This document shows positions 13,370 through 51,436 of a stretch of 64,000 bases of DNA, one piece after another. Source of the DNA: Candidatus Shapirobacteria bacterium (GTDB lineage Bacteria; Patescibacteriota; Microgenomatia; UBA12405); assembly GCA_041660365.1 (NCBI GenBank), contig JBAZWK010000001.1:1524-65523 (forward strand). The letters run 5' to 3'. Below the pieces are notes generated by a model. It was not told the DNA's origin. It worked only from the letters and a program-made list of their open reading frames with translations, and searched no databases. The translations under genes and the position numbers were made by a program. Numbering within the stretch: position 1 is the first letter of the stretch; each line of letters begins with the position of its first letter.

Positions 13370-13382
13370 AGATTGTTAATGA

Positions 13383-24710: not shown

Positions 24711-25785
24711 GCTTTGAGTATAGCAATTGAGGATATTTTTTTTCTATGTTTATGGCTAAACCAATGGCGGTGAAGAGAGTAATTAAGGAGGAACCGCCAT
24801 AAGCAATAAATGGAAAAGGAATGCCGGTTAGAGGAATTAAGGCGACAATAGCGGCAAAATTAATTAGCCCTTGGTAGGCAATCCAACAGGCAATACCGCT
24901 GACCAGAAGTTTTTCAAAGGTGTCGGGGGTAGTCTGAGAGATTTTAATAAGTCGGGAAATTAAAAGCAAAAAAAGATAAGTTATTAAAGATAAACCAATA
25001 AAACCGGTTTCTTCGCCAATAACAGCCAAAATGGAATCGGTGCTAATTTTTGGCAAAAATTTATACTTTTGGTCGGAATTAGCAAAACCTTTACCATTTA
25101 ACCCTCCCGAAGCTAAGGATAAAATTAATTGTTCACTATGATAATTGAGATCGGTATTAGTTTGTTGATTTAAAAGGGTTTTGACTCGAGCCAGACGGTA
25201 AGGAGAAACTAAAATTAAAACTAAACTAAAGATGGTAATGACAAAGGCGGCAGAAAAGAGACTGGTAATTTCAGCGCCAGACAAGTAATAAATAGTGATG
25301 ACAATGGCGGCAATCATAACGGTAGTGCTTAGGTTTGGCTCAGCAATAACTAAAATTAGAGGTAAAAACAAGTAAATAGCTAAATTTTTAAGATTTCGTT
25401 TTTCTGGAAGGGAAAAGAGATATGAGAAAAAAATCACTGCGGCTAGTTTGAAGAGTTCTGAGGGTTGAAAATTAAAAAAACCGAAATCAATCTGACGTCT
25501 GGCGCCTAAAACTTTGACACCAATCCCGGGAATTAAAACTAAAATCAAGGTGATTAAAGATAAGGCGTAAAAGCGAAAGGAGTTATTCATGAAAAAGCTT
25601 ATTTTCAAACGGGAAGTGATTAAAAGACAAATTAAACCAAGGACAATCCAAATTAATTGTTTTTTGAGAAAAAAATAAGGATCACCAATGGTTTTTTCAG
25701 CTTCAAAAAGAGAAGCGGAAGAGATAAAAAGAAGACCAATTATTGAGAGAATAATAGTGTATAAAAAAGTTTGAGAAAACTTCAT
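24655..25785 (-). CDS. ftsW: SEDS-family cell division protein FtsW
   Basis: Polytopic. 'GIPFPFIAYGGSSLITLF' is present. Adjacent to murG. Confidence 0.8.
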   Translation of the reverse strand: MKFSQTFLYTIILSIIGLLFISSASLFEAEKTIGDPYFFLKKQLIWIVLGLICLLITSRLKISFFMNNSFRFYALSLITLILVLIPGIGVKVLGARRQIDFGFFNFQPSELFKLAAVIFFSYLFSLPEKRNLKNLAIYLFLPLILVIAEPNLSTTVMIAAIVITIYYLSGAEITSLFSAAFVITIFSLVLILVSPYRLARVKTLLNQQTNTDLNYHSEQLILSLASGGLNGKGFANSDQKYKFLPKISTDSILAVIGEETGFIGLSLITYLFLLLISRLIKISQTTPDTFEKLLVSGIACWIAYQGLINFAAIVALIPLTGIPFPFIAYGGSSLITLFTAIGLAINIEKKYPQLLYSKHDQESKNNSHRHPSHSRP

Positions 25786-26882
25786 GATTTAATTTCGGCC
25801 AACATTTGGGGGTTAATAATGACGGGATTATTAGTTTTTGAAAAAATTTCAAATTTATTAATTTTTTTAATAGTGGTGCCAAGTTGGTTTCGAAGAGTAA
25901 TTTCGGAGCCGATTAAATTTTGGTTATAAAATCTGGCCTGTTCTTGGAATAAATTTACTTGATAGTTTAGGTTAGAAAATTCAGCCAGATGAAAATAAAA
26001 AAGTGGGGTTAAATTATTTTTTAATTCAATTTGAGTGTAAAAAGCAAAAGAAGCGGTTAGACGGGGGTTGCATTCCAAAAGATAAACTTGATCATTTTGA
26101 ACCATAAAATCAAGGCCAAAAAAACCACGATAATTTAAAGGATTTAAAATTTTTTCGGAAAAATCGGTAGTAATTTTTTTAATTTTTTCTTGAATTTCTA
26201 TTGGAGCTAGAGAAGGCCATTGACGGCCGACAGTGGCAAAAGAATTAGTGGTTAATTCGGAAAGACCGGTGTATTGGAGAGCCGGCGGACTTTGAAGAAG
26301 ACCGAATTTAGTGAGACAGCAATTATTTAAGAGAGAATAGGAGTTGGTAAGTAGAGGTGAAAATTTAGCGAGAGTATTGACGGGAATTAAATTTTTAGCA
26401 GTATCATAATTATCAAACTGATGGGTACTATTGCCGGCCCAACCAAAATGAGTTTGAATAACAATGTCCTTCCCAAATTTTTGTTGAGCTTCCTGAAAGG
26501 AATTTTGAGTAAAAGGGGCGATAAAAGCGGGAACTACAGGTAAATTATTTTGGGTACACAACTCAAAAAATTTAATTTTATCTTCTAAGAGACGATTAGT
26601 TTTAGCCGGATTAGCAGCCAAAAGCCATTGGTTTTTTTGACATAAAAGATCAATTTTGGCCGAAGGCTTAAAGGGGATAATAACTGTTTTATTTGATAAT
26701 TTAATTTGATCTTGAATATTTTTTTGAGACAAAAGAAAGCCACTATTTTTTATTTTTAAATAATTTTGAAATAACGAATGAAAATTGGGTAGTTGGGGTA
26801 AAGAAATATCTAAAAATTTATCGACGACTAAAAAATAGAAATCAAGTTCGGAATTTTTTAAAAGATCTTCTAAATAGTTCAT
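25782..26882 (-). CDS. ATP-grasp domain ligase of unknown specificity, in the dcw slot where ddl is normally found
   Basis: 'LEDKIKFFELCTQNNLPVVP' and 'RGFFGLDFMVQNDQVYLLECNPRLTASF' are the ATP-grasp C-domain motifs. No Ddl-type N-terminal domain is evident. Confidence 0.6.
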   Translation of the reverse strand: MNYLEDLLKNSELDFYFLVVDKFLDISLPQLPNFHSLFQNYLKIKNSGFLLSQKNIQDQIKLSNKTVIIPFKPSAKIDLLCQKNQWLLAANPAKTNRLLEDKIKFFELCTQNNLPVVPAFIAPFTQNSFQEAQQKFGKDIVIQTHFGWAGNSTHQFDNYDTAKNLIPVNTLAKFSPLLTNSYSLLNNCCLTKFGLLQSPPALQYTGLSELTTNSFATVGRQWPSLAPIEIQEKIKKITTDFSEKILNPLNYRGFFGLDFMVQNDQVYLLECNPRLTASFAFYTQIELKNNLTPLFYFHLAEFSNLNYQVNLFQEQARFYNQNLIGSEITLRNQLGTTIKKINKFEIFSKTNNPVIINPQMLAEIKS

Positions 26883-27676
26883 CGTTTAGTGCCAGTCAAA
26901 AGAATAACGGGATAATCCCCTACTTCAGGGTTATTTTTCATTTGTTGAAAAGCAGCAATGGTTAAAGCAGATTCGGCGGAAAGAGAAAATTGATTAGTAA
27001 AATCAAGACAATCAATGGTCTCTTGGTTGGAAATGATTAGACCAGAGCCTTGGTGTTTTTTGATAGCTCTAATAACTTCATTTTTTAAAGGCAAATATTT
27101 AACACTGAGGGCATCGGTAATAGTTTCTGTTTCTAATGTATATTCTGAGGTAAAAGCACTACAGATAGTAGGATTGCTAGCCGGCTGGACGGCAAAAATT
27201 TTTATAGTTAGGGGTAATTTTTTGGCAATCCCCAAAAGGGTAGTGCCGCTGCCAACGGGAATAAAAAGACTGGTAATTTGAGGAAGTTGCTCTAATAATT
27301 CAGTAGCAACTTGGCTGTAGCCAATTTGAGCGCTAGGATCAGTTGATTGGCGTAAAAGATAAGCGTGATTGGCTTTAGAAAATTTAATAGCATCGCTAAT
27401 TGCTTGTAAAGACTGAATAACATGGCCTTTGATTAGGGGTAATTTGCTTTGACTAATTTTTGGAGAGACAAAAATGGTCAGAGGAATATTGGCTTGCTGG
27501 CAATAGTAGGAGGCGGAAATGGCGGCATTACCGGTAGAAGAAATAACGGCAGTAGAGAAATTATTTTTAATTAAATTTTGAATTTGGAAAGGCAGAGCCC
27601 GATCTTTGGTGGAGCCAGTAGGGTTAAGATCTTCGCGTTTAAAATAAAGGTTATCGATTTTAGTTAGAGGTGTCAT
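26879..27676 (-). CDS. Fold-type II PLP-dependent enzyme (threonine synthase / cysteine synthase / serine-racemase superfamily)
   Basis: 'FKREDLNPTGSTKDRA' carries the Schiff-base lysine box. 'AVISSTGNAA' is the glycine-rich loop. 265 aa. Overlaps the ATP-grasp gene by 4 nt. Confidence 0.65.
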   Translation of the reverse strand: MTPLTKIDNLYFKREDLNPTGSTKDRALPFQIQNLIKNNFSTAVISSTGNAAISASYYCQQANIPLTIFVSPKISQSKLPLIKGHVIQSLQAISDAIKFSKANHAYLLRQSTDPSAQIGYSQVATELLEQLPQITSLFIPVGSGTTLLGIAKKLPLTIKIFAVQPASNPTICSAFTSEYTLETETITDALSVKYLPLKNEVIRAIKKHQGSGLIISNQETIDCLDFTNQFSLSAESALTIAAFQQMKNNPEVGDYPVILLTGTKR

Positions 27677-27710: not shown

Positions 27711-27875
27711 ATGCCAGATACTAATAATAAAGTTATTTGCCCTGATTGCCAAACAGAAATTAAAAGTGAAACGATGAGTGTGGGAGATATTTTAGAGTGT
27801 CCAGAATGCGGTACCGAGGTGGAAATATTATCAATTAATCCCTTGAAATACCGGGAATTGATTGAAGAAAAATAA
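27711..27875 (+). CDS. LysW-like small zinc-ribbon protein (amino-group carrier protein family?). Absent from the ORF track, which has a 60-aa cutoff
   Basis: The 54-aa product 'MPDTNNKVICPDCQTEIKSETMSVGDILECPECGTEVEILSINPLKYRELIEEK' has two CPxC knuckles. Its 'GxxLxCxxCGxExEIxxxNPL' stretch parallels LysW. The stop overlaps the def start (taATGg). Confidence 0.45.
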   Translation: MPDTNNKVICPDCQTEIKSETMSVGDILECPECGTEVEILSINPLKYRELIEEK

Positions 27876-28462
27876 TGGCCACTAGAGAGACAATTCAAAT
27901 TGGAGATTTGCGATTAAAGGCAGAAAATGAGACTGTGGGTGATTTTGCTAATTTAAAAATAAGACAAGTGGTGACTGATTTGGTGGATACGATGCACCAA
28001 GAAGGAAATATTGGTTTAGCAGCCCAACAAATTGGGGAAAATTGGAAAATTTTTGTAACGGAACCAAGAGAAACTAAAGACAGAACGGCAGATCAGGCTG
28101 ATGAATTACGGGTTTATATTAACCCAATAATTACTGAATTTTCTAAAGAGGAAAGCGTTATTTATGAAGGTTGTGGAAGTGTTTTACATGGAACTTTATT
28201 TGGACCGGTTAAGAGACCAAGAGAAATTACTATTGAGGCCTTTGATTTAGAAGGTAAAAGATTTAGATTAATTTGTGATGGAATTTTAGCGAGAGTAATT
28301 CAACATGAATATGACCATTTACAAGGAATTGAATTTGTGGAAAGGATTAGCGATTATAAGAAATTGATGGTGGCGGAATTTTATCGACAAAGAGTAAAAA
28401 ACTCTCCAGAGCAAATTGAGGCATCAAAAATTACTAAGAAAATATACCAATATTTAGGATAG
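27875..28462 (+). CDS. def: Peptide deformylase
   Basis: 'GNIGLAAQQIG' is motif I, 'EGCGSV' is motif II and 'QHEYDHLQG' is motif III (HExxH). Confidence 0.85.
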   Translation: MATRETIQIGDLRLKAENETVGDFANLKIRQVVTDLVDTMHQEGNIGLAAQQIGENWKIFVTEPRETKDRTADQADELRVYINPIITEFSKEESVIYEGCGSVLHGTLFGPVKRPREITIEAFDLEGKRFRLICDGILARVIQHEYDHLQGIEFVERISDYKKLMVAEFYRQRVKNSPEQIEASKITKKIYQYLG

Positions 28463-29032
28463 ATTTAGTCTAAAGACACCTTGGTTCGGAAATTTTTTGT
28501 TGGTAATACTGAACTCGCCGTAGTGGACTCCCCTACCGATAAGTGAAGAATCGACATAAACGACTTTATCTCCCATTTTTTCGATGACAAAGAGAAGGTG
28601 TCGGCCATTTTTTTGTCGAATTAAATCAGCGGTTTGGATGTTGTTGATATCGATTTTTTTAGATAATGGAGCGGAAGTTAGCATATCGGCAGAGGTGCGG
28701 CGAACGTTTAATTTAATATCAAAATAAAAATTCAAAAGATGACAGGCAAGACCAGAGCAATCAATACCAATTTTATTTTTCTTTTGGAAGTTATAAATTT
28801 GTTGAGGGCTTAAATCAACTAATTTTATATTTTGAATATTAGCTAATTCAATTGTTTTTAAGGCAATTTCTTTAGCACTGCCTTTACCAACATCAACAGC
28901 ATTTAGAGAAATTTTTTTGGGACGATTGGTATAGTAGGGAATGCCAATATATTTTAAAATTTCGGAGTGAAGATCTGCTAATTTAGTCCTAACCATAGTC
29001 CAAAAATAGCTAATATAAATGTGGCCAACCAA
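28454..29032 (-). CDS. NlpC/P60-family cysteine peptidase with no evident signal peptide. Possibly a murein-peptide-processing enzyme
   Basis: 'GIDCSGLACHLL' gives the catalytic Cys. '...GRHLLFVIEKMGDKVVYVDSS' gives the His region. Overlaps the mraY 3' end. Confidence 0.5.
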   Translation of the reverse strand: MVGHIYISYFWTMVRTKLADLHSEILKYIGIPYYTNRPKKISLNAVDVGKGSAKEIALKTIELANIQNIKLVDLSPQQIYNFQKKNKIGIDCSGLACHLLNFYFDIKLNVRRTSADMLTSAPLSKKIDINNIQTADLIRQKNGRHLLFVIEKMGDKVVYVDSSLIGRGVHYGEFSITNKKFPNQGVFRLNLS

Positions 29033-30012
29033 GCTCTAAAAACAATTTTTGGTTCTTCCCAGCCAAGTTTTTGTAATGTGAGATGAATTGGAGCAGCGGG
29101 AAAAACTTTTTTATGTAAATATATTTTACTAAAAATTTGAATGGCGCTGCTGAGACCTTCGATTATAAAAGGTAAACCGACAATAATTAGTGGAACAATT
29201 TTTCCTAATAGTAGGGCTATAACAGCAAAGGTGGCTCCAAAGGAAAGAGAACCGACGTCACCAAGCCAGAGGCGGGCGGGAAAGACATTAAAGTAAAGAA
29301 AGGCGATTAAAGCGCCGATCCAGAGAGCTAGAAATAAGGAAATTGGAGTGTCTAGAGAAGTGCTGGCGAGAATCCAAAAGGCGAAGAGAGAAATCATTAA
29401 AATACCACAGGACAGGCCGTCTAGACCGTCACTAATGTTAAAAAAATTAGCGAAAGCGACGATAATAGTTGTAGAAATAGGAATGAAAAAAAGTCCTAAG
29501 CTGACAGCACCAATAAAAGGTAGATAGATAAAATTAATGCCGAGTTGAAAATAAATTAGAGAAGAGGTAATCGTAGCTAGAATTATTTGAAGTAATAATT
29601 TGTACTTCATGCGGAGACCGAAAAAACCTGTTTTAGGAAAAGCAAAAAACTTAAGAACATCATCATAAAGGCCAAGGAGACCGAAGCTGATAAAGGTAAA
29701 AAAGATAATGGTAATTTCGTTAATTAAATGGTAGTTACTGGAAATAAAAATTCGCGACATTTTTAGAATGGGAAAAAGAAAGAGAAAAAGTACTGAAACG
29801 GCAACAATAATTAATAATCCTCCACCAACAGGAGTACCACTTTTCTGGGCATGAAATTTGTCAAAAATCGGAGTGTGTTTGTTCTGAAAATCGAGAGTAT
29901 TTTGTTTTTGACGTTGAAATTTAAGTTTGTAAAGTAAATTAATGAATGGCACTACTAAAATACTAGTGGCAATAAAAGAAAAAAGGAGTAGTCCAAGATA
30001 TAAGTGAATCAT
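28978..30012 (-). CDS. mraY: Phospho-N-acetylmuramoyl-pentapeptide transferase
   Basis: Polytopic. 'GLYDDV', 'NISDGLDGLSCG' and 'LGDVGSLSFGA' are MraY/WecA-family motifs. Confidence 0.85.
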   Translation of the reverse strand: MIHLYLGLLLFSFIATSILVVPFINLLYKLKFQRQKQNTLDFQNKHTPIFDKFHAQKSGTPVGGGLLIIVAVSVLFLFLFPILKMSRIFISSNYHLINEITIIFFTFISFGLLGLYDDVLKFFAFPKTGFFGLRMKYKLLLQIILATITSSLIYFQLGINFIYLPFIGAVSLGLFFIPISTTIIVAFANFFNISDGLDGLSCGILMISLFAFWILASTSLDTPISLFLALWIGALIAFLYFNVFPARLWLGDVGSLSFGATFAVIALLLGKIVPLIIVGLPFIIEGLSSAIQIFSKIYLHKKVFPAAPIHLTLQKLGWEEPKIVFRAWLATFILAIFGLWLGLN

Positions 30013-31337
30013 GTTTTGATATATTTTATATTAGCACCTAATGAGCAGAGACGGTCAGCAAGTTTTTCGTAACCACGTTCGATATATTCCACATTATCAA
30101 TGGTGCTTTCGCCGGTGGCGGTGAGGGCGGCCAAAGTGATACAAGCACCGGCGCGAAGATCGTTAGCACTGAAATTGGCAGCTTTTAATTTAATTGGGCC
30201 ATAAATTTTGACGGCGTGAAAATACTCAGATTTATCGGTGTCTAAATTAAATTCATAATATGCCTCAGGATTGGCTATTTTTGGGTTGTAAGTTTGAGTT
30301 TTAGCCCCCATTTGGTTCAAGAAAGCTAGGTGTTGAAAACGGGAAGGATAGACTCGTTCAATAACATTACTGACGCCAATGGCTTGAGTTAAAAGAACTG
30401 AAAAAATAGCTTGCCAATCGGTCATAAAACCTGGTTCTGGCCCTGTTTCAATATCGATAGCAGTTAATTGTTTTTGCCAAGAGACAGTGACTTCATCTTT
30501 GCCGGCATCAATTTTAGCGCCCATTTTTTCAATAGTATCTAAAAAAGTCTTAATAATTTGGGAATCAGTTCGTAAAATATTGATGGAACCTTTGGTGGCC
30601 AGGGCGGCACAGGCAAAAGTGATGGCTTCGTTTCTATCAGAGATGACTTGATGACTAGTGCCATGAAGTTTGGTGACACCATTAATAATAATAGTTTTAG
30701 AATTATCTTTCTGGCGGACAATATCGGCACCCATGGTATTTAACATGGCAATTAAATCATCAATTTCCGGTTCTAAAGCAGTGTTTTCAAAAATACTTTG
30801 GCCTGAAGCTAGGACGGCGGTCATAATGACCACTTCAGTAACGGTGTGACTAGGTTTGTTGAAAACATAGTGAGTACCTTTGATTTGTTGAGTAGTAAAA
30901 ATCATTAAATCATCTTTAAATTCAGTATTAATTCCCATAGTGGCAAAACAATCAAAAAGACGATCTAAAGGCCTGGCACCTAAACGGTCACCGCCAGGAG
31001 TGGGAATAGTGGCCTGACCAGTTCTGGCTAAGAGTGGAGCGGCAAAAATAAATGAAGTCCGGGATTTTTCACCGGTACCGTGAGGAACAACTGTGGAGCT
31101 AATTTTAGGAGTTTGAATACTGAGACTGTGTTCCCCGGTTCTAATAATTTTTGAGCCCAAACTTTCAGCGATACTTTCGGTAATTTTGACGTCAGAAATT
31201 TGAGGAATGTTAAAAATGTGAGTGATTTCATCAGAAAGAAGAGAAGCAATTATTTGTTTATAACTGGCATTTTTGGCACCGCGAATGGAAACTTCCCCAT
31301 TAAGAGATTGGCCTCCATTAATAATATATTTAGACAT
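30009..31337 (-). CDS. murA: UDP-N-acetylglucosamine 1-carboxyvinyltransferase
   Basis: 'MSKYIINGGQSLNGEVSIRGAKNAS' is the MurA N-terminus. EPSP-synthase fold. 442 aa. Confidence 0.8.
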   Translation of the reverse strand: MSKYIINGGQSLNGEVSIRGAKNASYKQIIASLLSDEITHIFNIPQISDVKITESIAESLGSKIIRTGEHSLSIQTPKISSTVVPHGTGEKSRTSFIFAAPLLARTGQATIPTPGGDRLGARPLDRLFDCFATMGINTEFKDDLMIFTTQQIKGTHYVFNKPSHTVTEVVIMTAVLASGQSIFENTALEPEIDDLIAMLNTMGADIVRQKDNSKTIIINGVTKLHGTSHQVISDRNEAITFACAALATKGSINILRTDSQIIKTFLDTIEKMGAKIDAGKDEVTVSWQKQLTAIDIETGPEPGFMTDWQAIFSVLLTQAIGVSNVIERVYPSRFQHLAFLNQMGAKTQTYNPKIANPEAYYEFNLDTDKSEYFHAVKIYGPIKLKAANFSANDLRAGACITLAALTATGESTIDNVEYIERGYEKLADRLCSLGANIKYIKT

Positions 31338-32698: not shown

Positions 32699-33301
32699 TT
32701 AATTGTAAGAATGCCATTGGCCATTAATAAAATACTCAAAATTGGGGAAATTACGTTTGTAATAACCTAATTTAGTTTCGGGATTAAAACGGCCTAAATA
32801 ACAATATTTTAGTTTTTGGTCGTAAGAATCCTGAATTACTTGAAGGGATAATCTGATCGGTAGATCGTGATGGGCATATTTAGGGTCGTAAAAAACGTAA
32901 GCAATATGGGAAATAGTTGAAGAAAAATAGCATATGGCGTAGGCACATTCCTGATGATTTTCATCAGAGTAAACATATAGACGATTAAAAATATGATCTT
33001 TAAACAGGGTTTTTATAGTGGATGTAGGAATTTCCCATTCTAAAGTTTTTGACCAAGTAAATAATTTCTTTTGAAATTCTGGTGTGTAAGCAGAGAAATC
33101 TTTTAAAGGGATTTGCTTAAAAGAAAAAGTGTTAGTTTTTTTAAAAATACGACGGTTCTCGGAGGAGAGTTGAAAATTACTGAGATCACAGCGGGAAGAA
33201 TAATTCTCGTCGTGATAAAAAGTATCTTTAAGATTACGTTGAGGTAAAAGACCCTGTTGATAATTTTCTTCTATAGATAGATTGTTTTTAATATTAAACA
33301 T
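32699..33301 (-). CDS. ATE_C / Bpt-like aminoacyl-tRNA--protein transferase homologue (GNAT fold) lacking the Cys-rich ATE_N domain. Start trimmed to the Met at 33301
   Basis: 'IAYVFYDPKYAHHDLPIRLSLQVI...YCYLGRFNPETKLGYYKRNFPNFEYFINGQW' parallels the conserved FYDP...YLGYW...KxxYKxxFxPxE...GxW core of arginyl-tRNA-transferase / Bpt C-domains. The longer ORF overlaps murE. Confidence 0.55.
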   Translation of the reverse strand: MFNIKNNLSIEENYQQGLLPQRNLKDTFYHDENYSSRCDLSNFQLSSENRRIFKKTNTFSFKQIPLKDFSAYTPEFQKKLFTWSKTLEWEIPTSTIKTLFKDHIFNRLYVYSDENHQECAYAICYFSSTISHIAYVFYDPKYAHHDLPIRLSLQVIQDSYDQKLKYCYLGRFNPETKLGYYKRNFPNFEYFINGQWHSYN

Positions 33302-34549
33302 TTTGAGTTTTAAGGCGGAAAGCGCTTCTAAAGGCTTCGGCTTCAGACCAAGGATATTCAGTAGAACCGTGAAGAATGGTAGTTTCATGACCCTTGCCAC
33401 AGGCAACAATGGTATCGCCGGGCTTAGCAATTTTAACAGCCAGATTAAAAGCATCTTGACGATTGGGAATATTGAAATAATGAAATAAGTTTGGGTCTTT
33501 AATAACGGAATCGAGAGGATCAAGAAAAAGTGACTTTTTGGGATTAATACCAGAGATTATTTGCTGATTAATGTCTTCAATTTTTTCGTGACGGGTATCA
33601 TCAGCGGTAATAAAGGCAATATTGGCTAATTTGGAAACGACTTTTCCCATGAGTGGGCGTTTACTTTGATCTCTGCCGCCGGTAGCACCAAAGATGACCA
33701 AAAGACGTCCTGGAGTGATTTTTCGAAGTGAATCTAGAGTAACCTTGAGGGCGTTGGGGGTATGAGCAAAATCAATAACAGTTTTTATTTTAGGGTCTAA
33801 AGAGATATTTTCCCGACGGCCTTTGGCTTCGGGAAAATTAAGAATAGTTTCGACAAAAATTCTTGGATCAAGATTTAATTTTGAAAATGCCGAATAACAG
33901 GCTAAAATATTATAAATTTGGTATTCGTAATTACTGTCTGTAGAAAATTGTTGATGATTTATTTTAAAACTTAAAGATTGAGAATCAATCTTAACTTCGG
34001 TAGCGGTGAAATCGGATTTATTTCTAACGCCGTAGTCAATACAGGGAATTGAAATCATGGCTTTTAACTTGGGGTAATAAGGGTCATCATGATTAATGAC
34101 CGCTAAATCTGACTGAGAGAAAATTTTAGCTTTAGTTTGAAGGTAATTGTCAATAGTGTGGTGATAATCGAGGTGTTCGTGAGATAAATTAGTAAAAATA
34201 CCAATTTTAAAATGGCAACCCCAATAACGATATTGGTCTAAAGCATGGGAAGTAACTTCACAGACAACGTGGGTGTAACCTTGTTTTTGATAATCAAATA
34301 AGATTTTTTGGATATCTTTAGGATCGGGACTGGTGGTGTGAAGGCCTTGGGTGCTGAGAGTACTGATAATGCCGCATTTAAGGCACTATTTTCTAACAAT
34401 TTTTGCATTAGAGTACAAGTGGTAGTTTTACCATCAGTACCAGTGACCCCGATTAGAGTTAGTTTATGGCTAGGAAAATGGAAATATAAGTTCCAAAAAA
34501 TACTTTGGGGTAAGTGCCAAAAGAGATTTTTAAAGCGCTGAGTATTCAT
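33294..34549 (-). pseudogene. murE: UDP-N-acetylmuramoyl-L-alanyl-D-glutamate--2,6-diaminopimelate ligase MurE, split by a 1-nt frameshift near 34377-34388. The ORF track shows it as fragments 34238..34549 and 33294..34058
   Basis: The N-terminal fragment has the P-loop 'LIGVTGTDGKTTT'. The downstream frame continues 'GIISTLSTQGLHTTSPDP...VCEVTSHALDQ...FTNLSHEHLDYH...VIDFAHTPNAL...GKGHE', which covers all the MurE motifs. The two frames differ by one base at a TTT/AAA run. Restoring one A gives the contiguous stretch ...LLENSALKCGIISTL... Confidence 0.65.
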
Positions 34550-34561: not shown

Positions 34562-36151
34562 TTATAACAAAGGCTCTAACTTTTGAGCTAATTCGAACCA
34601 CATTGGCGCGGCGGTAGATGAACCCCAAGGGGAAGAACGTGGATTGTCAATAGTAATAATCATGGTGAATTTAGGATTATCGCAGGGGGAAAAACCGATA
34701 TAGGAACCAATAGTGTTGGAATTGTCGTAAACACCCTGGATTGAGACTTGAGCGGTACCACTTTTGGCACAAACATCCATGTTTTTGGGTCGAAATTGGT
34801 TAACGGGGCTATTTTCGACTGCGTAGCGCAAAATGCCTTTAATTTGGTCAATAGTACTGTTTTTATAAACTGAAGTGCTTTCAATTGGAGAAAGCTTATT
34901 AAGATGAACTTTGACCAGTTGGCCATTATTGGCTATAGAATTGAAAGCTTGAATCATTTGTAATTGGTTGACGGCAATACCTTGGCCAAAAGCGGCGGTG
35001 GCAATATCAATATCGGACCAATAAGTTTTGGGTGGGGAAATAGATTCCCCACTAAGTTCGACGCCAGTTTTTTGATCTAATTTCAAAAGATGAAAATAAT
35101 CCAAAAATTTGTTGATAGTTAATTTGTCCATAACATAGGACATACCAATATTATCGGAATTTTTTATAATATCATCTAAAGTGGAATCGGGGTGAAGAGA
35201 ATTGTCCCAATTACTGATAGTATACTGACCAATCTGTCGGGGGCGGTCACATTTTTGACAAATAAAATTGCGATCTAAATTGCCAGAATCAAGAGCAGCG
35301 GACATAACTAAGGGTTTAAAAATAGAACCTGGTTCAAAAATATTGGCAATATTGGTGGTTTTGGTGGTGGCGGAAGGACTGGCCTCGTATGAAGCCATAG
35401 CCAGAATTTCTCCACTCTGAGGTTTAATAATGATAATTGAAGCAGAATCAGCTTGGTATTTTTCTACACCATCTTTGATAGTATTTTCGGCTAATAGTTG
35501 AATTTGGCGGTTAAGAGAAGTGTGAATATCTTGACCATCAATTTCATTTTTTTGCCAGTTTTTACGGGTTAATAGGTTAGCACCGGTGCCGTCAACTGCG
35601 GAACGGGAAAAACCGACCTGACCGGAAATTTGACGTTGGTAATAACGTTCCAGATTTTGAATAATGTTGATAGCGAGGCTTTGTTCTGGATATAATCGGG
35701 CCTGCTTTTCAGTAAAATCAATACCAGGGATATTTTGAAGATTTTGCATTTGGCTACGATTAAATCTGGTAATGAAGTCTAACCATTTTTGATTCGGATT
35801 ATTAAATTTTTCTAAAAGGATGGCATTTTCAGAGGTAAATTTGGCTTCAGTGGAGCTGATTTCGGCAATAATCTCTGGAAGAGATTTTTGAAAATTTGGT
35901 TTATAAAGGGAAAGGTTATAGTAGGTATAACTTAGACTTAAAGGAAAGTTATCAGAACTAAGAATATTGCCCTGTTTTGGGAAAATAGTATTAAGTTTAT
36001 AGATCTGAGAAGTAGCTTGATCTCGAAGTTCTTGGCCTTTAAGGATTTGCCAATAAAAAAGGCGACCTAAAATTAAAATAAAACAAAGATAAATAGTTAA
36101 AAGAATAATTTTAGAACGTTTGTTTTCCATTGATGGCGTATTTGTTAGCAA
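34562..36151 (-). CDS. ftsI: Penicillin-binding protein 2/3 family transpeptidase (FtsI)
   Basis: N-terminal TM. 'GSIFKP' is SxxK, 'NSDN' is SxN and 'KSGTA' is KTG. Sits in the dcw position after ftsL. Confidence 0.8.
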   Translation of the reverse strand: MLTNTPSMENKRSKIILLTIYLCFILILGRLFYWQILKGQELRDQATSQIYKLNTIFPKQGNILSSDNFPLSLSYTYYNLSLYKPNFQKSLPEIIAEISSTEAKFTSENAILLEKFNNPNQKWLDFITRFNRSQMQNLQNIPGIDFTEKQARLYPEQSLAINIIQNLERYYQRQISGQVGFSRSAVDGTGANLLTRKNWQKNEIDGQDIHTSLNRQIQLLAENTIKDGVEKYQADSASIIIIKPQSGEILAMASYEASPSATTKTTNIANIFEPGSIFKPLVMSAALDSGNLDRNFICQKCDRPRQIGQYTISNWDNSLHPDSTLDDIIKNSDNIGMSYVMDKLTINKFLDYFHLLKLDQKTGVELSGESISPPKTYWSDIDIATAAFGQGIAVNQLQMIQAFNSIANNGQLVKVHLNKLSPIESTSVYKNSTIDQIKGILRYAVENSPVNQFRPKNMDVCAKSGTAQVSIQGVYDNSNTIGSYIGFSPCDNPKFTMIITIDNPRSSPWGSSTAAPMWFELAQKLEPLL

Positions 36152-36317
36152 ATTCTATTTGAAGATTTTCGTTTTGTTGTTTTATTTCAGAATATTTTTT
36201 TTCTAGCTCAGAATATCTTTGGTTTTCGGTAACCATTTGACTGGAATAATAAACAGAAAAAAGGATTTGAAAAAAAACCAAACCGAGAGTGATAGCCAGT
36301 AAGAGTCGGTTAAGCAT
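36111..36317 (-). CDS. ftsL: Cell division protein FtsL-like (single TM plus coiled coil)
   Basis: 68 aa. The TM 'LLLAITLGLVFFQILFSVYY' is followed by a heptad-like 'ELEKKYSEIKQQNENLQIE'. Lies between rsmH and ftsI. Confidence 0.5.
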   Translation of the reverse strand: MLNRLLLAITLGLVFFQILFSVYYSSQMVTENQRYSELEKKYSEIKQQNENLQIEFANKYAINGKQTF

Positions 36318-37183
36318 TAGTTATTTTGATAAATTCTAAGAACGGCCGAACGGGATAAAGGATTTTTTTTAATTTCTTGATGAGTCGGCAGAAATTTTTC
36401 TGATTTTAGATGGTGTTGAACAATAAATTGTTTAATAATCCGATCTTCACCGGAATGAAATGAAATAATAACAACTTTACCCGATTTTTTGGTTATTTTT
36501 AATGAAGCATTGAGAAGTTTTTTTAAATTATCAAATTCATGATTAACGGTAATTCGCAGGGCCAAGAAAATTTTAGTAGAGGGATTTTTTTGAGTAGAAT
36601 AATGTTTTTTTTGATAATAATTTTGGACAATTTGGCTGAGCTCTAAACCATTTTTTATGGGATGATGTTGTCGAGCCTGAATGATTTCATAAACTAATGG
36701 TTTGGCAAGTTTTTCCTGAGCATATTTAGTAAAAATTTCATAAAGTTGATCTTTATCCCAAGTATTAATAATTTCTTCGGCGCTTAGAGTTTGAGTTTTA
36801 GGATTAAGTCGCATATCCAAAGATTTTGGATCATTAAATGAGAATCCCCTATCTGTGCCTGATTGTTGGTTAAGACTTAAGCCTAAATCGACTAGAAGAC
36901 CATCTAAAGGCTGTTTTATTTTTTTGTGCCAAAGAGAATAGATTTGAGAAAAATTGCCTTTAAGGGGATGAAAGTTTGTAGATAAATTTTCGTTCTTTAT
37001 CCTATCTACAGCAATTTTTTGATTTTGTGGATCAAGATCAAGGCCATAGACAGTAGCGCCTTTATTTAAAATTTCCAGAGTATGTCCAGCATGACCTAAA
37101 GTAGCATCTAAAAATGTTTGACCACTTTGAGGGTCGAGAAGTTTAATGACTTCTGATAATAGGACAGGCTGGTGATAATTCAT
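36317..37183 (-). CDS. rsmH: 16S rRNA (cytosine1402-N4)-methyltransferase RsmH (MraW)
   Basis: 'HQPVLLSEVIKLL...FLDATLGHAGHT' is the RsmH N-terminus. Ends with 'FHSGEDRIIK'. Confidence 0.85.
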   Translation of the reverse strand: MNYHQPVLLSEVIKLLDPQSGQTFLDATLGHAGHTLEILNKGATVYGLDLDPQNQKIAVDRIKNENLSTNFHPLKGNFSQIYSLWHKKIKQPLDGLLVDLGLSLNQQSGTDRGFSFNDPKSLDMRLNPKTQTLSAEEIINTWDKDQLYEIFTKYAQEKLAKPLVYEIIQARQHHPIKNGLELSQIVQNYYQKKHYSTQKNPSTKIFLALRITVNHEFDNLKKLLNASLKITKKSGKVVIISFHSGEDRIIKQFIVQHHLKSEKFLPTHQEIKKNPLSRSAVLRIYQNN

Positions 37184-37800: not shown

Positions 37801-39117
37801 TTAATTTAACTGCTTTTTGAGCCAGGTGTCAATTTCGTCGATATTTATTCTAATTTGAGACATAGTATCCCGATCGCGAATAGAGACAGTGTGGTCTTCT
37901 AAAGTTTGATAATCAATAACAGCACACCAAGGAGTGCCAATTTCGTCCTGACGACGATATTTTTTACCAATATTACTGCTGTCGTCAAAATCAACGGAAT
38001 AATTTTGTGATAGGTCGGTGTAAAGTTTTTGAGCTTTTTCAACGAGTTCTGGTTTATTAGCTGCTAAGGGAAAAATAGCCAATTTATAGGCAGAAACCTT
38101 TGGATTGATTTTTAAATAAGTTCTAATTTCACCATTGTCTAATTTTTGTTCCTGATAAGCGTCAAGCAATAAAAAGAAAAAAGAACGGTCAACTCCACCA
38201 GAAGCCTCGACGATATGAGGTAAATATTTTTCATGAGTGACTGGATCTAAATAACTAAGATCCTGACCACTAAATTTGGAATGTTGGGTTAAATCATAGT
38301 TACCACGCCAATGAATGCCTTCCATTTCCGCCCATCCCCAGGGAGCATTATATTCAATATCAAAGGCTTTTTTGGCATAAAAAGCGAGTTCGTCTGGTTC
38401 ATGTTGGCGAAATCTTAAGGAATCTTTTTGGTTAAATAAATTTTGATACCAGGTCATACGCTGTGCTTTCCAATATTCATAGAATTTATCCATATCGGCT
38501 TCTTGGCAAAAATATTGGATATCCCATTGTTCAAATTCTCGGGTACGATAGAGAAAATTTTTGGGAGTGATTTCATTTCGAAAGGCTTTTCCAATTTGAG
38601 CAATACCAAAAGGAATTTTGACACGGCAGGAATTAACCACATTTTGAAAATCTAAATAGATAGTTTGACAGGCTTCACCACGAAGATAAGTTTTTATTTT
38701 TTCACCTTCAATAACCCCAATACTAGTTTCCATAAGGGTATTAAATTTTTTGGCTTGAGTGAATTCTCCCCCACAATCAGGACAAATTTTAGCATTATCG
38801 ATTAAATCGGGACGAAAACGGTGGTGACATTTTTTACATTCCACCATAAGATCACCAAAATTTTGGATATGACCGGAGGCTTCCCAAACTTTAGGGTGAG
38901 TAATTATGGTCCCATCAATCAAAACAAGATCAGAACGCTGCTGGACATTGTGTTTCAACCATAAAGATTTCCAGTTGTTTTTCATTAAAGAACCGATGGG
39001 GCCGTAATCATAAAAACCTTGGATACCACCGTAGATTTCACTGTTTTGAAATATTATCCCTCGACGTTTACAAAGGGAGACAATCTTAGCGACTTGATCA
39101 TTTTGCTCATTACTCAT
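37801..39117 (-). CDS. glyQS: Glycyl-tRNA synthetase, alpha2 (archaeal/eukaryal-like) type
   Basis: 'FQNSEIYGGIQGFYDYGPIGSLMKNN' is the class-II GlyRS motif 1 region. A zinc knuckle 'CKKCHHRFR...CPDCGG' is present. Confidence 0.85.
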   Translation of the reverse strand: MSNEQNDQVAKIVSLCKRRGIIFQNSEIYGGIQGFYDYGPIGSLMKNNWKSLWLKHNVQQRSDLVLIDGTIITHPKVWEASGHIQNFGDLMVECKKCHHRFRPDLIDNAKICPDCGGEFTQAKKFNTLMETSIGVIEGEKIKTYLRGEACQTIYLDFQNVVNSCRVKIPFGIAQIGKAFRNEITPKNFLYRTREFEQWDIQYFCQEADMDKFYEYWKAQRMTWYQNLFNQKDSLRFRQHEPDELAFYAKKAFDIEYNAPWGWAEMEGIHWRGNYDLTQHSKFSGQDLSYLDPVTHEKYLPHIVEASGGVDRSFFFLLLDAYQEQKLDNGEIRTYLKINPKVSAYKLAIFPLAANKPELVEKAQKLYTDLSQNYSVDFDDSSNIGKKYRRQDEIGTPWCAVIDYQTLEDHTVSIRDRDTMSQIRINIDEIDTWLKKQLN

Positions 39118-39133
39118 GTGTGTATTATAAACG

Positions 39134-40516
39134 TTAATTTATAGTTCTGGAAATTTTATATACAAACCAGTCTGAACGGTTTATCTTGATAGTATCTGAA
39201 GGTTTTAGATTACGAAAGTTATCGAGTTCGTAAGCCGGATCTTTTGAGAGTTTTTGCCAATCATTTTGATAAGAAATAACGTACAAAGTATCAATTTTTT
39301 TATATTCAGCGGGATCTTTTATGACAATATCTTTTAAAGTTAATTGATCTTTAAAACGAAAACCTTTGGTATTTCCATCTGGACTTTGGAGAACAATTAA
39401 ATTAAACAATGGGTCACTTTTTTGATTTTCGTCAATATAGTTGATAATTTGTTTTTGGGCCTGAATATTACTAGTCCAATCTGATGAATTTAAAATGGTA
39501 GGAATATTTAAAAGATTAAAAACAATTAATAGGAGAGTTAATAATTTGATTAAAAGATATTTTTGATTTTTATATAACCAAAATAAGTAAAAAATAGTGA
39601 CTGGTAGGATATAGTGACCACTAAATCGGCTATGTGCTAAAGAGAGGCCGACTATTTGAAAAATAAACGGTAGTATCCAGAGGTTATTTTTGTTTCGATA
39701 AATAATGAGACTAGTTAATGTCAGAATAAAAGCAATATAGCCAAAAACTATTTGATTTCCAGAGAAATAGGTAAAAAGATTAGTGGTAAGAAGCCAAAGA
39801 TTTTGCAAAAAGGAGATTTGGTGGGTATTGGTGTAGAGCTGACTAAAAGAAAGCATTCTGGTTATAAATAATCCGGGAGGATGGGTTAAATCAAACAAAA
39901 TGAAAGGAGTAATGCTTAGGAATAAACCGAGCGAATATTGCCAACTGTCTTTAAATTTTCTATTAAGAAAAAATATTATTGGAATAATGGCTAGTGTAGT
40001 AAAAACGGCAAACCAGTGAAGATGAATAGTTAAGCCCATTAGAATACCGGTGATAATATATTTATAAGGTAACTTAGAAAAAAGAATTAAGAGAGATAGG
40101 GCTTGAAAAAATGGAATAAGGTGAGGACTCCAAGCCCAGCGGGAGGAGACCAATAGAGGAGTAAAGATAACTGTTAATATAAAAATTGGATAAGACCAAT
40201 GAATTTTTTTTAGAATTAAAGCAAAAAGTATAAGAGTCAGAAGGCCGTAAAAGACAGTGCTATAGGCGGTAACCATGGGGTCATAACCAAAGATAATACA
40301 AAATGGCAAAAATAAATAATAAGGCAGGGAACTAAAAACTTCGATACCGTTTTCATCTGTTGGACCAATTAAAGTAATTTTTTTGTTTTGATAAATATTT
40401 TTAATACTGACGAGAACACTGGATTCATCGCGTGTAAAACGGGAACTATATTGAAGATTGTATAAGCGAAAAAATATCGCCAGAGCGATTAGTAATATAA
40501 TAATTATTTTTTTCAT
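39134..40516 (-). CDS. GT-C-fold polytopic membrane glycosyltransferase (ArnT / PMT / GT39-83-like)
   Basis: About 11 TM helices. The first loop 'FFRLYNLQYSSRFTRDESSVL' carries the DE motif typical of ArnT/PMT-type GT-C enzymes. Soluble C-terminal domain. Confidence 0.45.
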   Translation of the reverse strand: MKKIIIILLIALAIFFRLYNLQYSSRFTRDESSVLVSIKNIYQNKKITLIGPTDENGIEVFSSLPYYLFLPFCIIFGYDPMVTAYSTVFYGLLTLILFALILKKIHWSYPIFILTVIFTPLLVSSRWAWSPHLIPFFQALSLLILFSKLPYKYIITGILMGLTIHLHWFAVFTTLAIIPIIFFLNRKFKDSWQYSLGLFLSITPFILFDLTHPPGLFITRMLSFSQLYTNTHQISFLQNLWLLTTNLFTYFSGNQIVFGYIAFILTLTSLIIYRNKNNLWILPFIFQIVGLSLAHSRFSGHYILPVTIFYLFWLYKNQKYLLIKLLTLLLIVFNLLNIPTILNSSDWTSNIQAQKQIINYIDENQKSDPLFNLIVLQSPDGNTKGFRFKDQLTLKDIVIKDPAEYKKIDTLYVISYQNDWQKLSKDPAYELDNFRNLKPSDTIKINRSDWFVYKISRTIN

Positions 40517-41073
40517 TTAAATAGTTTACTGCTAATAAGTGGTTTTTCGATAATGGATTCACAATATTTTTTAAGAAGTTGTTGAGTATTTTTATAATCT
40601 TGTTCTTGGTAAATATTTTTTATTTCAGTGGGAATGCCATAACCCAATAATTCCAAAAACAAAATTTCATTTTTAATAAATATATTGAACTGGTCCTGAC
40701 TAATGGATTCGATAATTTTAGCTAAAATTGGGTAAATTTCTGGGAGATTTTGATTGAAGGGTAAAAGAAGGTTGGCTATTTCTAAAAAATAAAACAGTAA
40801 ATTAATCTGGCCAAGCTTTTGGGAATGATAAAGAAAGGACAGTTCCGATTCCGATTCAGAGAGCCAAAGAAAATTATTTTTTTGATAAAGACCAACCTTA
40901 ATGATGTTGCCTATTTCTAAATGACCAAGACGGCGGCTTTTAACGGACTGAACGCTTTTTGCTAAACAGTTTATTTTGCCTAAGTTTGGGGTAAATAATG
41001 TTAAAAGTAAATCCCCTTCTCCACGACGTTGTTTTTTGATAACAATGGCATGTGTGGAAATATTTCGGTCCAT
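40513..41073 (-). CDS. recO: DNA repair protein RecO (short form)
   Basis: 'THAIVIKKQRRGEGDLLLTLFTPNLGKINCLAKSVQSVKSRR' parallels the RecO N-terminal OB-fold consensus. 186 aa. Confidence 0.55.
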   Translation of the reverse strand: MDRNISTHAIVIKKQRRGEGDLLLTLFTPNLGKINCLAKSVQSVKSRRLGHLEIGNIIKVGLYQKNNFLWLSESESELSFLYHSQKLGQINLLFYFLEIANLLLPFNQNLPEIYPILAKIIESISQDQFNIFIKNEILFLELLGYGIPTEIKNIYQEQDYKNTQQLLKKYCESIIEKPLISSKLFK

Positions 41074-44736: not shown

Positions 44737-44762
44737 TTACGAATTACGAATTACGAATTAAG
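44735..44762. repeat. Tandem heptanucleotide repeat (AATTACG)x3 plus one imperfect unit. Spans the 14-bp gap between two GT4 genes and includes the downstream TTG start and the upstream stop
   Basis: Reads aattacg aattacg aattacg aattaag directly. Confidence 0.6.
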
Positions 44763-50835: not shown

Positions 50836-51428
50836 TATTGAAAAAGCATGGCTCGACCCAAAGAATATTGGGGATTTTTAAGTTGACGATCGGAAATCTT
50901 TTTAGCGGGAATTCCACCCCAAACTTCATAATCGGGAATGTCTTTGGTGACCACTGCGCCGGCAGCGACAATGGCTCCCCGACCAATAGTAACTCCGGGA
51001 AGAATAATAGCCCGAGGACCAATAAAAACGTAATCTTTGATGATAACTGGAGCAAAGGAATTTTTAAAATCGGAGGAATTTATGTCGTGTTCGTCAGTAT
51101 AAATTAAAACTTCACTGGCAATATCCACGTGATTACCAATATCTAATTTTCCTCGACCGTCTAAAAAAGCGCGATAACCGATGATGCTGTTTTGGCCGAT
51201 AGTGATGCCGCTTGGGTGGAAAAAATTGGCTTCGAGTTGAATAGTACTGTTGAAGGGCATTTTTAAACCCGAGATTAGATAAAAAACTTTTCGAAGACTA
51301 TGGATGGGGAGGTAACCGATAATTCTTAAAATCAGTAGCCAAAATTCACTAAAAACAGTGAGAAAACGATTTAGTATTTTAGGAAATAGGTTTTGGAGAG
51401 TTAGTTTTTGACCAACGTATTCATTCAT
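50835..51428 (-). CDS. Hexapeptide-repeat (left-handed beta-helix) acetyltransferase, sugar O/N-acetyltransferase type
   Basis: The repeats '[42 protein letters not shown]' are LbH repeats. Confidence 0.65.
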
Positions 51429-51436
51429 AAGTTAAA

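Follow-up and report, generated by a model that had tools for sequence, protein, structure and literature searches.

A Cys-less relative of the Bpt and ATE1 aminoacyl-tRNA transferases in the mur operon of Candidatus Shapirobacteria

Within a 64,000-nucleotide stretch of DNA from a Candidatus Shapirobacteria bacterium (contig JBAZWK010000001.1; the whole stretch is hereafter called the window), a small gene at 32699..33301 on the reverse strand encodes a homologue of the aminoacyl-tRNA transferases Bpt and ATE1 and lies between two Mur ligase genes of the division and cell wall (dcw) cluster. We use ATEC as a working name for its 200-aa product and the relatives of that protein. Its domain-model match, profile comparisons, fold and catalytic residues place ATEC in the ATE_C superfamily, and in one lineage it is fused to MurC. 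Several lines of evidence tie it functionally to cytoplasmic peptidoglycan-precursor synthesis, namely its fixed place between two Mur ligases in hundreds of species, its translational coupling to murE, the MurC fusion and an association with alanine racemase in an unrelated phylum. We propose, giving the idea roughly even chances, that ATEC transfers an amino acid from tRNA to the third-position residue of UDP-MurNAc-peptide or lipid II, which would make it an analogue of Fem and MurM by function and a relative of Bpt and ATE1 by descent.

Very few bacteria of the Candidate Phyla Radiation (CPR, or Patescibacteria) have been cultured, and to our knowledge no wall structure has been determined for any of them. 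If our proposal is right, ATEC would be the first member of the Bpt/ATE1 family to have a cell-wall precursor, and not a protein, as its substrate, the second independent recruitment of tRNA-dependent GNAT chemistry to peptidoglycan synthesis after FemABX, and the first concrete, testable clue to peptidoglycan chemistry in the CPR. The small size of the protein (200 aa) and its confident structural model should help expression and crystallography. We found no description of the ATEC family in the open-access literature.

A minimal homologue of Bpt and ATE1

The gene was singled out in a first-pass annotation, made from the letters alone, as an ATE_C/Bpt-like transferase homologue, and our analysis bears this identification out, the homology far exceeding chance. 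The longest open frame spans 32699..33523 on the reverse strand, but the true start is ATG 33301, the position at which all ATEC orthologues begin, with MFN or MYN. A database protein 100% identical to ATEC is recorded as a "hypothetical protein" of a Candidatus Shapirobacteria metagenome-assembled genome. The gene and its residues of interest are as follows.

32699..33301, reverse strand: Cys-less Bpt/ATE1-like aminoacyl-tRNA transferase homologue (ATEC), 200 aa; from the open reading frame (ORF), Pfam, hhalign, AlphaFold2 (AF2) and Foldseek
33215..33238, reverse strand: codons of R22...Y29, probable counterpart of the acidic-acceptor pocket (Arg80 and Tyr87 of K. lactis Ate1); from global hhalign
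33134..33163, reverse strand: codons of S47-T56 (SSENRRIFKK T), basic helix, predicted binding site of the tRNA acceptor arm; from hhalign to Bpt and AF2
32756..32761, reverse strand: codons of Tyr181-Lys182, predicted catalytic dyad; from hhalign onto Bpt Y220-K221

The transferase core that the annotation had read from the C-terminal half (FYDP, YLG and a longer motif) is present, as VFYDP at residues 136-140, CYLG at 167-170 and KLGYYKRNFPNFEYFINGQW at 177-196. An alignment of 21 ATEC orthologues (A1) contains ~60 invariant columns at 59-79% pairwise identity, a pattern that marks the protein as being under strong purifying selection.

ATE_C (PF04377) was the sole Pfam family found on ATEC, covering residues 99-189 with 26.2 bits against a gathering score of 25 (E = 1.3e-5), and the NCBIfam 'arginyltransferase' (bpt) models matched with ~35 bits (best 35.4; E = 1e-8) over profile positions 75-239 of 247. 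When A1 was compared by hhalign with four Cys-bearing bona fide Bpt sequences, the match had a probability of 99.2% (E = 7.5e-20) and extended locally over residues 35-200, gap-free from 113 to 192; across local and forced global runs the probability was 99.2-99.5%. At E <= 1 we obtained no match to Leu_Phe_trans (PF03588, Aat) in Pfam, nor to FemAB in Pfam or NCBIfam. The C-domain of MprF (DUF2156) likewise gave no Pfam match, so that its likeness to ATEC is structural only. By sequence ATEC stands outside FemABX, Aat and MprF, yet its action may be FemX-like.

The first-pass annotation had named a structure model lacking the GNAT acceptor groove as grounds against its reading; the AF2 model built on A1 (pLDDT 93.3, pTM 0.89) is a confident GNAT/ATE1-like fold. 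Foldseek searches of the PDB with this model returned human, yeast and K. lactis ATE1 as the top matches (E down to 2e-9, TMq 0.66-0.70, probability 1.00; TMq and TMt are TM-scores normalised to query and target, respectively), followed by the MprF aminoacyl-phosphatidylglycerol synthase domain and then Weissella FemX, in line with the fold shared with FemXAB that had been anticipated. Each of the three has a GNAT fold and uses tRNA as its source of the aminoacyl group. Searching PDB sequences with ATEC alone gave no relevant match, and since such searches proved too weak, we routed residue mapping through Bpt sequences.

Bpt, the leucyl-tRNA-protein transferase of the Vibrio vulnificus type (COG2935, PRK01305), is the closest sequence relative of ATEC. 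The two proteins share the Tyr-Lys dyad, an SxxxRR basic helix, FxDP, YLG, an uncharged donor pocket and a length of ~200-260 aa, whereas the ATE_N Cys of Bpt (C21 and the C65/C68/CxxC71 cluster) are absent from ATEC. Overall, ATEC departs from characterised Bpt/ATE1 in three features: its equivalog score, the Cys-rich ATE_N and the N-degron context. ATE1 (PDB 8tzv, 8e3s, 7tif, 7wg1/7wg2), the best structural match, has the GNAT core and the catalytic Lys K304 with its preceding Tyr in common with ATEC, but reaches ~500 aa with a Zn or Fe-S N-domain and a large C-terminal domain, both missing from ATEC. With FemX of Weissella (PDB 1xe4, 4ii9, 7z6a), as with FemABX and MurM, ATEC shares the GNAT fold (Foldseek E ~1e-5, TMt 0.33-0.37). 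The catalytic Lys K305 of FemX is equivalent to ATEC K182, and both proteins are genetically linked to wall synthesis. FemX, however, consists of two tandem GNAT lobes in ~335 aa (family about 330-420 aa), whereas ATEC is modelled as a single GNAT domain of 200 aa and, unlike FemABX, descends from the protein-transferase branch. Aat (PF03588), which acts on N-terminal Arg/Lys, shares GNAT-fold aminoacyl-tRNA transferase chemistry and small size with ATEC. Its catalytic residues differ and form a Gln188/Asp186 relay (bioRxiv 10.1101/2022.07.20.500667).

The place of MprF and other aminoacyl-phosphatidylglycerol synthase domains among the top structural matches could mean that ATEC aminoacylates a membrane lipid or another envelope polymer, as the MprF synthase does, instead of peptidoglycan, and the window contains a stand-alone LPG_synthase_TM (MprF flippase-like) gene at 56174-57109. 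That gene, however, is 23 kb away inside a polysaccharide cluster. ATEC has no hydrophobic (membrane) segment visible in its sequence, its sequence kinship is to Bpt and not to DUF2156, and its conserved neighbours are Mur ligases; we give a lipid or polymer acceptor almost no credence.

Catalytic and substrate-binding residues

Residue roles were taken from the K. lactis Ate1 and FemX literature and transferred through the gap-free hhalign register to Bpt. Tyr303-Lys304 of K. lactis Ate1 corresponds to Phe304-Lys305 of FemX, and the K304A and Y303F mutants of Ate1 are inactive (PMC9351520). The corresponding Y181-K182 dyad of ATEC is invariant in 21 of 21 orthologues and also throughout a broad alignment of 64 sequences. 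A basic helix, alpha3, is reported to be conserved among aminoacyl-transferases and contacts tRNA phosphates in Ate1 (PMC9351520). In ATEC, hhalign pairs segment 47-56 with the Bpt segment LSRSQKRVLTKN; the AF2 model is helical at 47-55, and S47, E48, N49, R50, R51 and K55 are invariant in the orthologues. Judged by these correspondences, helix 47-56 would be the ATEC equivalent of the alpha3 tRNA helix.

Counterparts in ATEC can also be proposed for the acceptor and donor pockets of Ate1. In Ate1, an R80/Y87 pocket recognises the carboxylate of the acceptor's first residue (PMC9351520); R22 and Y29 of ATEC are invariant in all 21 orthologues and keep the +7 spacing seen in Ate1 and Bpt, and by an alignment of low confidence at this point an Arg/Tyr carboxylate-binding pocket is probably retained. 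The donor side-chain pocket of Ate1 is formed by S255, S273, E277 and Y289 (PMC9351520), for which hhalign gives A168, A185, Q189 and L201 in Bpt and I133/A134, L151, V155 and C167 in ATEC. Val155 stands where ATE1 has the acid (Glu277/Asp277) to which the Arg side chain binds (PMC9351520; bioRxiv 10.1101/2022.07.20.500667). The predicted ATEC donor pocket is therefore uncharged and hydrophobic, and a small or hydrophobic amino acid would be likelier than Arg. As this pocket offers no acid to bind arginine, the 'arginyltransferase' annotation is probably wrong, and both labels currently borne by ATEC relatives, 'arginyltransferase' and 'hypothetical', are probably misleading. His132 is invariant and specific to the ATEC family; Bpt has Ser at the same site.

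The first-pass annotation had described ATE_N as lacking, which holds for its Cys and its beginning. ATE_N gave no Pfam match in ATEC, and in the global hhalign alignment the first ~30 residues of Bpt, which hold the CxYC motif, are absent, while a 6-residue deletion falls at the Bpt PHCEHC knuckle (the first two of three clustered Cys) and the third Cys aligns with Asn33. The only conserved Cys in the orthologues are C124 and C167, both in the GNAT core, and by this alignment the four metal-binding Cys of ATE_N are lost. The claim does not extend to the whole domain: residues 17-37 align as a Cys-free remnant of the C-terminal half of ATE_N, in which the Arg/Tyr pocket segment is apparently kept.

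These residues also bear on whether ATEC uses tRNA at all. As a GNAT, ATEC could instead acylate a wall precursor at the expense of acyl-CoA or some other donor, N-acylation of a diaminopimelate (DAP) amine being one such reaction, or it could be a non-catalytic subunit or scaffold of a Mur-ligase complex. The fold is that of a GNAT, the top PDB sequence-profile matches are ordinary acetyltransferases, members from Verrucomicrobiota (described below) match Pfam Acetyltransf_6, and complexes and chimeras are known among Mur enzymes. The best structural matches, however, are all aminoacyl-tRNA transferases, the group-specific Tyr-Lys dyad and the basic helix are invariant, and the ~60 invariant positions favour catalysis over scaffolding. 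We regard a tRNA-independent ATEC as very unlikely.

A fixed position between murE and murC

A scan of one genome per GTDB species yielded 189 stretches encoding an ATEC relative. The best 80 of these (50-68% identical) were fetched and, together with one locus each from a 1.1-Mb and a 269-kb contig, make up 82 Shapirobacteria loci. In 82 of 82, wherever the contig reaches, murE, ATEC and murC follow one another on one strand, as part of the order rsmH, ftsI, murE, ATEC, murC, (murA), mraY. The spacing between ATEC and murE is mostly 0-30 nt or an overlap, with the murE stop often overlapped by 4-8 nt; in the window the ATEC start codon lies inside the terminal murE codons (...AAA ATG TTT AA), so that the two frames share 8 nt. 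A 71-nt AT-rich gap separates the ATEC stop from the MurC-type ligase gene. The insertion between Mur genes noted in the first-pass annotation is thus present in the window, among the following genes.

36317-37183, reverse strand: rsmH, upstream dcw part
36111-36317, reverse strand: ftsL/DivIC-like ORF, upstream dcw part
34562-36151, reverse strand: ftsI, upstream dcw part
33294..34549, reverse strand: murE (DAP-type by motif), directly upstream of ATEC; NCBIfam TIGR01085, NF001126
31344..32627, reverse strand: MurC-type Mur ligase, directly downstream of ATEC; TIGR01082 (murC) is the best model
30009-31337, reverse strand: murA; Pfam EPSP_synthase in the orthologous locus L001, order conserved in 60+ loci
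28978-30012, reverse strand: mraY; Pfam Glycos_transf_4 in the orthologous locus L001, order conserved in 60+ loci

The full dcw order in the window (GC ~0.35) is rsmH, ftsL-like ORF, ftsI, murE, ATEC, MurC-type ligase, murA, mraY and a 192-aa ORF, continuing with def and a LysW-like Zn-ribbon gene (both on the opposite strand), a ThrC-like pyridoxal phosphate (PLP) enzyme, an ATP-grasp ligase, ftsW, murG, ftsA and ftsZ.

The window copy of murE is split by a single frame change at ~34370-34385 (near 34375; ...LLENSAL / KCGIISTLS...), with an ORF for the N-terminal part at 34238-34549 and the remainder in another frame down to 33294, whereas intact orthologues encode 405-441 aa and score 357-409 bits. 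The frame change is probably a 1-nt assembly error and possibly marks a pseudogene; the site lies outside both identical public contigs. The Arg of the MurE DNPR motif, which marks enzymes that add diaminopimelate-type residues, is kept, as DDTR in 76 Shapirobacteria loci and as EDPR in the class I loci described below. The window MurC-type ligase scores 194.6 bits with TIGR01082 against a cutoff of 335, and its orthologues score 242-260 bits.

Contigs carrying the Shapirobacteria-type operon are often recorded as 'uncultured Gammaproteobacteria' (L005, L006, L007, L009 and many more), and one as 'Candidatus Methanoperedens sp.'; such labels are probably placeholders or the result of mis-binning.

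Fusion to MurC

Searching 1.84 billion representative proteins with an ATEC family profile uncovered 242 clusters (50% identity) at E <= 1e-3, in which true Bpt appeared only at ~1e-8; close ATEC homologues numbered 451. Among the proteins found is one of 645 aa in which the ATEC domain is joined in frame to a MurC-type ligase through a Pro/Ser-rich linker. The fusion occupies the same dcw position on three contigs, and its 90% cluster has seven members (P0121, P0395-P0400) from ENA, JGI and one NCBI contig of 234 kb, with two different Pro/Ser linker sequences among the seven. It is a genuine gene fusion of one lineage, not an assembly artefact, and provides a physical link to the Mur pathway.

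A second join, in P0178 (809 aa; L093 8001-10430), connects an ATE_C-like domain to a PPDK_N plus PEP-utilizers (ATP-grasp-type) module; the P0178 gene lies outside any dcw cluster and adjoins DNA methylase and helicase genes. A third candidate, P0304 (Alr C-terminal domain plus ATEC), has the appearance of a truncated gene call or a read-through and was not used as fusion evidence.

ATEC could, like Bpt, add an amino acid to the N-terminal Asp/Glu of one or more proteins, such as a divisome or wall protein, for turnover by a ClpS-type N-degron pathway or for regulation, in which case the mur location would reflect co-regulation only. Bpt leucyl-transferases are its nearest sequence relatives, the Arg/Tyr pair that recognises an acidic N-terminal residue is apparently conserved, and the hydrophobic donor pocket resembles that of Bpt. 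The gene, however, has an invariant place between two Mur ligases and is translationally coupled to murE. One lineage has it joined in frame to MurC, and its operon is that of the mur genes, with neither clpS nor any other N-degron gene as a companion. Homologues accompanied by clpS/aat-type genes, which the first-pass annotation had named as grounds against its reading, were not seen: a search with an E. coli ClpS query, in itself a weak negative, found no clpS homologue in 173 loci of all classes or in the 64-kb window. The metal-binding Cys of ATE_N are lost, the NCBIfam Bpt equivalog cutoffs are widely missed, and the alanine racemase link in Verrucomicrobiota lacks N-degron logic. We consider a Bpt-like action on proteins distinctly improbable.

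Relatives in other lineages

Most members of the wider family are 215-275 aa long and carry an additional Cys-free stretch at the N-terminus (MKLFFSE..DY..Y.FPY), which in alignments matches the CxYC part of ATE_N. A metagenome scan with a 15-sequence subset alignment returned 526 relatives, of which the best 80 were sorted into two classes.

Class I comprises ~25 loci with a GC content of 0.27-0.52, all but one at or below 0.42. MurE lies within ~2 kb upstream of ATEC in every one of them, and MurC comes next wherever there is enough contig to show it; the exceptions are L113 and L114, whose 8 kb of downstream flank contain no recognised murC. The fully annotated class I locus L107 reads rsmH, ftsI, MurE (409 bits, above cutoff), ATEC, MurC, MurB, MurA, MurF-like, mraY, an ORF, a LysW-like Zn-ribbon and a ThrC-like PLP enzyme. 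A further low-GC subfamily has the order ATP-grasp, ORF, mraY, ATEC, MurC, Zn-ribbon and PLP enzyme, and a MurD-like ligase as a direct neighbour. From their GC content and gene order we infer that the class I relatives are members of the CPR.

Class II comprises 56 loci (L115-L173) on contigs of up to 797 kb, with a GC content mostly of 0.47-0.63; judging by one named match among 2,816 homologues (the top matches listed being 80-93% identical), the class represents Verrucomicrobiota. Here ATEC is a 267-aa Cys-less protein at the end of an operon that begins with a PurD-like ATP-grasp ligase and an alanine racemase (for example L169 3826-8063 and L121 5594-8044). The racemase gene, alr, scores 355 bits with TIGR00492 and the PurD-like ATP-grasp 98 bits, far under the purD cutoff; of the 39 loci whose flank is long enough, 33 have alr in the same orientation as ATEC and no more than 2 kb upstream of it. 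Class II members also match Pfam Acetyltransf_6. As far as our searches show, this three-gene operon is uncharacterised. Its other two genes once more point to the chemistry of D-amino acids and of peptide ligation. The survey of homologue locations that the first-pass annotation had called for therefore finds ATEC embedded in dcw clusters in 82 of 82 Shapirobacteria loci and ~25 distant low-GC loci, and accompanied by alr instead in Verrucomicrobiota.

A proposed reaction on the peptidoglycan precursor

The proposal of third-position aminoacylation pictures ATEC as a minimal, Cys-free GNAT transferase of the Bpt/ATE1 branch that was recruited into peptidoglycan-precursor synthesis. Helix 47-56 would dock the acceptor arm of an aminoacyl-tRNA, placing the aminoacyl group in the hydrophobic pocket formed by I133/A134, L151, V155 and C167. 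Arg22 and Tyr29 would hold an acceptor amine that bears a neighbouring carboxylate, and the tetrahedral intermediate would be stabilised by Tyr181-Lys182, a part played by Lys304 in Ate1 and by Lys305 in FemX. A diaminopimelate-type residue leaves a free amine beside a carboxylate, an arrangement for which the Arg/Tyr pocket conserved in Bpt/ATE1 enzymes would be fitted and which led us to propose the third position as acceptor. The likeliest acceptor would be the free distal-centre amine of the diaminopimelate-type residue just added by the coupled MurE, in UDP-MurNAc-tri/pentapeptide or lipid II, and the product would be a branched stem peptide. This predicted job is the same as that of FemX, which performs aminoacyl-tRNA-dependent addition to a third-position diamino acid.

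An aminoacyl-tRNA is most likely the donor, in view of the retained tRNA helix, the Tyr-Lys dyad and structural neighbours that are exclusively tRNA-dependent. Staphylococcal tRNA-Gly genes are a precedent for tRNAs dedicated to wall synthesis; we looked for a dedicated tRNA gene near the operon, and the only tRNA gene in the window is a tRNA-Val at 13295-13369. A class II aminoacyl-tRNA synthetase gene (37801-39117) and recO lie immediately upstream of the dcw cluster (window 37801-41073; L001 3039-5148) in all annotated loci, and the synthetase alone was detected also in class I loci. We take the enzyme to be glycyl-tRNA synthetase, Pfam giving its class only. The pairing of recO with glyQS is older and general in other bacteria, and as the synthetase adjoins recO in all annotated loci, we gave it no weight as an indication that Gly is the donor.

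The first-pass annotation had favoured a tRNA-dependent modification of the stem peptide or lipid II over an N-end-rule function. Its preference for the cell wall is well supported by genomic context and the MurC fusion, while the use of tRNA, the identity of the acceptor and the donor amino acid are what we infer from homology.

Several observations weigh against third-position aminoacylation or the homology on which it draws. The margin of ATEC over the Pfam ATE_C threshold is small, and the equivalog cutoffs of the NCBIfam bpt models (170-358 bits) are missed, by more than 130 bits; by these scores ATEC is no equivalog of characterised Bpt. A PDB search with the 64-sequence profile reached ATE1 only at E = 0.06, behind generic GNATs. 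The alignment of R22 onto Bpt R54 and of Y29 onto Bpt Y61 comes from the forced global hhalign run and lies in a low-confidence stretch. Class II relatives have no adjacent mur genes. Neither the substrate nor the product of MurC contains a free stem-peptide amine, and since MurC is both the fusion partner and the most constant neighbour of ATEC, the fusion is not a specific pointer to the DAP amine. The tRNA-dependent cell-wall branching enzymes known to us are all FemABX, and none is of the ATE/Bpt type. Finally, a nearby module of ATP-grasp ligase, PLP enzyme and LysW-like protein permits other chemistries.

The LysW/ThrC/ATP-grasp module and the mur genes not detected nearby

This module lies downstream of mraY in the window and consists of three genes.

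27711-27875, forward strand: LysW-like Zn-ribbon, 54 aa; TIGR01206 39.8 bits against a cutoff of 53
26879-27676, reverse strand: ThrC-like PLP enzyme (truncated), dcw module
25782-26882, reverse strand: ATP-grasp_3 ligase, dcw module

The C-terminal (I/V)EEK tail of the Zn-ribbon is conserved in 70 loci, and LysW/ThrC/ATP-grasp genes recur in the orthologous locus L001 (15042-17255) and in other CPR clusters with ATEC (L089 2902-9690, L107 15460-16641), the ATP-grasp outside Shapirobacteria not always being adjacent (L089) or within the fetched flank. By analogy, the module resembles an amino-group-carrier-protein system, and it sits where murD/ddl usually are. It is possibly associated with ATEC, and the two may be linked in function.

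Such a link would allow ATEC to take part, with the neighbouring ATP-grasp ligase and PLP enzyme or racemase (and, in the CPR, the LysW-like carrier), in peptide pre-assembly or branch extension. In one version the acceptor would be a free amino acid or dipeptide (D-Glu, D-Ala-D-Ala) later installed by a Mur ligase; in another, the ATP-grasp would first attach a D-amino acid to the stem, which the transferase would extend with an L-amino acid from tRNA. A triad of ATP-grasp, PLP-dependent enzyme and ATEC recurs in Shapirobacteria dcw clusters, other CPR dcw clusters and the Verrucomicrobiota operon, but no cross-match between CPR and Verrucomicrobiota ATP-grasps was found at E = 1e-5; with no detectable orthology, the triad is one of enzyme classes only. 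P0178 joins an ATE_C-like domain to an ATP-grasp-type module, and fusion with MurC, not MurE, fits action upstream of ligation. The CPR module may, however, be a mere dcw passenger, for example a Ddl/Alr substitute, and relatives with a full MurC/D/E/F set would find pre-assembled peptides superfluous. We know of no aminoacyl-tRNA transferase that uses free amino acids as acceptors in wall synthesis. There is, in its favour, a precedent for such a division of labour: D-amino-acid cross-bridges are made by ATP-grasp ligases and L-amino-acid/Gly bridges by tRNA-dependent GNAT ligases (PMC2922099). D-aspartate branching by Aslfm/Racfm of Enterococcus faecium follows the same genomic logic, with an ATP-grasp ligase and a PLP enzyme/racemase beside wall genes (PMC2922099), although that system is tRNA-independent and lacks a GNAT component, and is likened to the CPR ATP-grasp by gene class only. 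Taken together, we judge pre-assembly or branch extension unlikely, though it is the main rival of third-position aminoacylation.

The Shapirobacteria dcw clusters hold only two Mur ligases, MurE and MurC. At a tblastn threshold of 1e-6 we detected no murB, murD, murF or ddl in 88 Shapirobacteria stretches (L001-L087 with 8 kb on either side, and the 64-kb window); other parts of the genome may encode them. In sister low-GC lineages, MurB and MurF are retained in the interval from murC to mraY. We rejected the idea of ATEC as a general substitute for a missing Mur ligase because MurE (409 bits), MurC, MurB and MurF are encoded in the same cluster as dcw-embedded relatives, with a MurD-like ligase nearby. 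Since these relatives carry the canonical ligases, ATEC supplements the Mur pathway in them and does not replace a part of it. A hybrid route confined to Shapirobacteria, in which MurC and MurE would be the only Mur ligases, ATEC and the ATP-grasp, ThrC-like and LysW-like proteins would replace MurD/MurF/Ddl (and perhaps MurB-dependent chemistry), and part of the stem peptide would come from aminoacyl-tRNA, has in our estimation very little chance of being correct.

Other features of the window

An ORF of 190-285 aa lies beside mraY (window 28454-29032, reverse strand; L001 14360-15040; L107 14606-15463; L089 4139-4915), directly after it or, in L089, directly before it, a placement conserved in several CPR lineages. 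Neither Pfam nor NCBIfam gave a match for it. Homology was shown only between the versions at L089 and L107, and the window version (p192) matched only one in L119, where it follows murC.

Two FtsW/RodA-family (SEDS) genes are present in the window, one within the dcw cluster (24655-25785) and the other at 17315-18313, beside a class I aminoacyl-tRNA synthetase gene (18310-21078, probably IleRS). The polysaccharide cluster at 43035-57109, to which the LPG_synthase_TM gene belongs, encodes a Bac_transf initiating transferase, at least nine GT1/GT2/GT4 glycosyltransferases, a Wzy-type ligase/polymerase, a hexapeptide acyltransferase and a DUF4012 protein. A low-GC stretch (0.28) at 2000-13400, with the tRNA-Val gene nearby, contains genes for an OLD-family AAA/TOPRIM nuclease (3291-5096), a CAP/TPM-domain protein (5644-6615) and a Prim-Pol/D5-type primase-helicase (8511-10850), and looks like an integrated mobile element or defence island.

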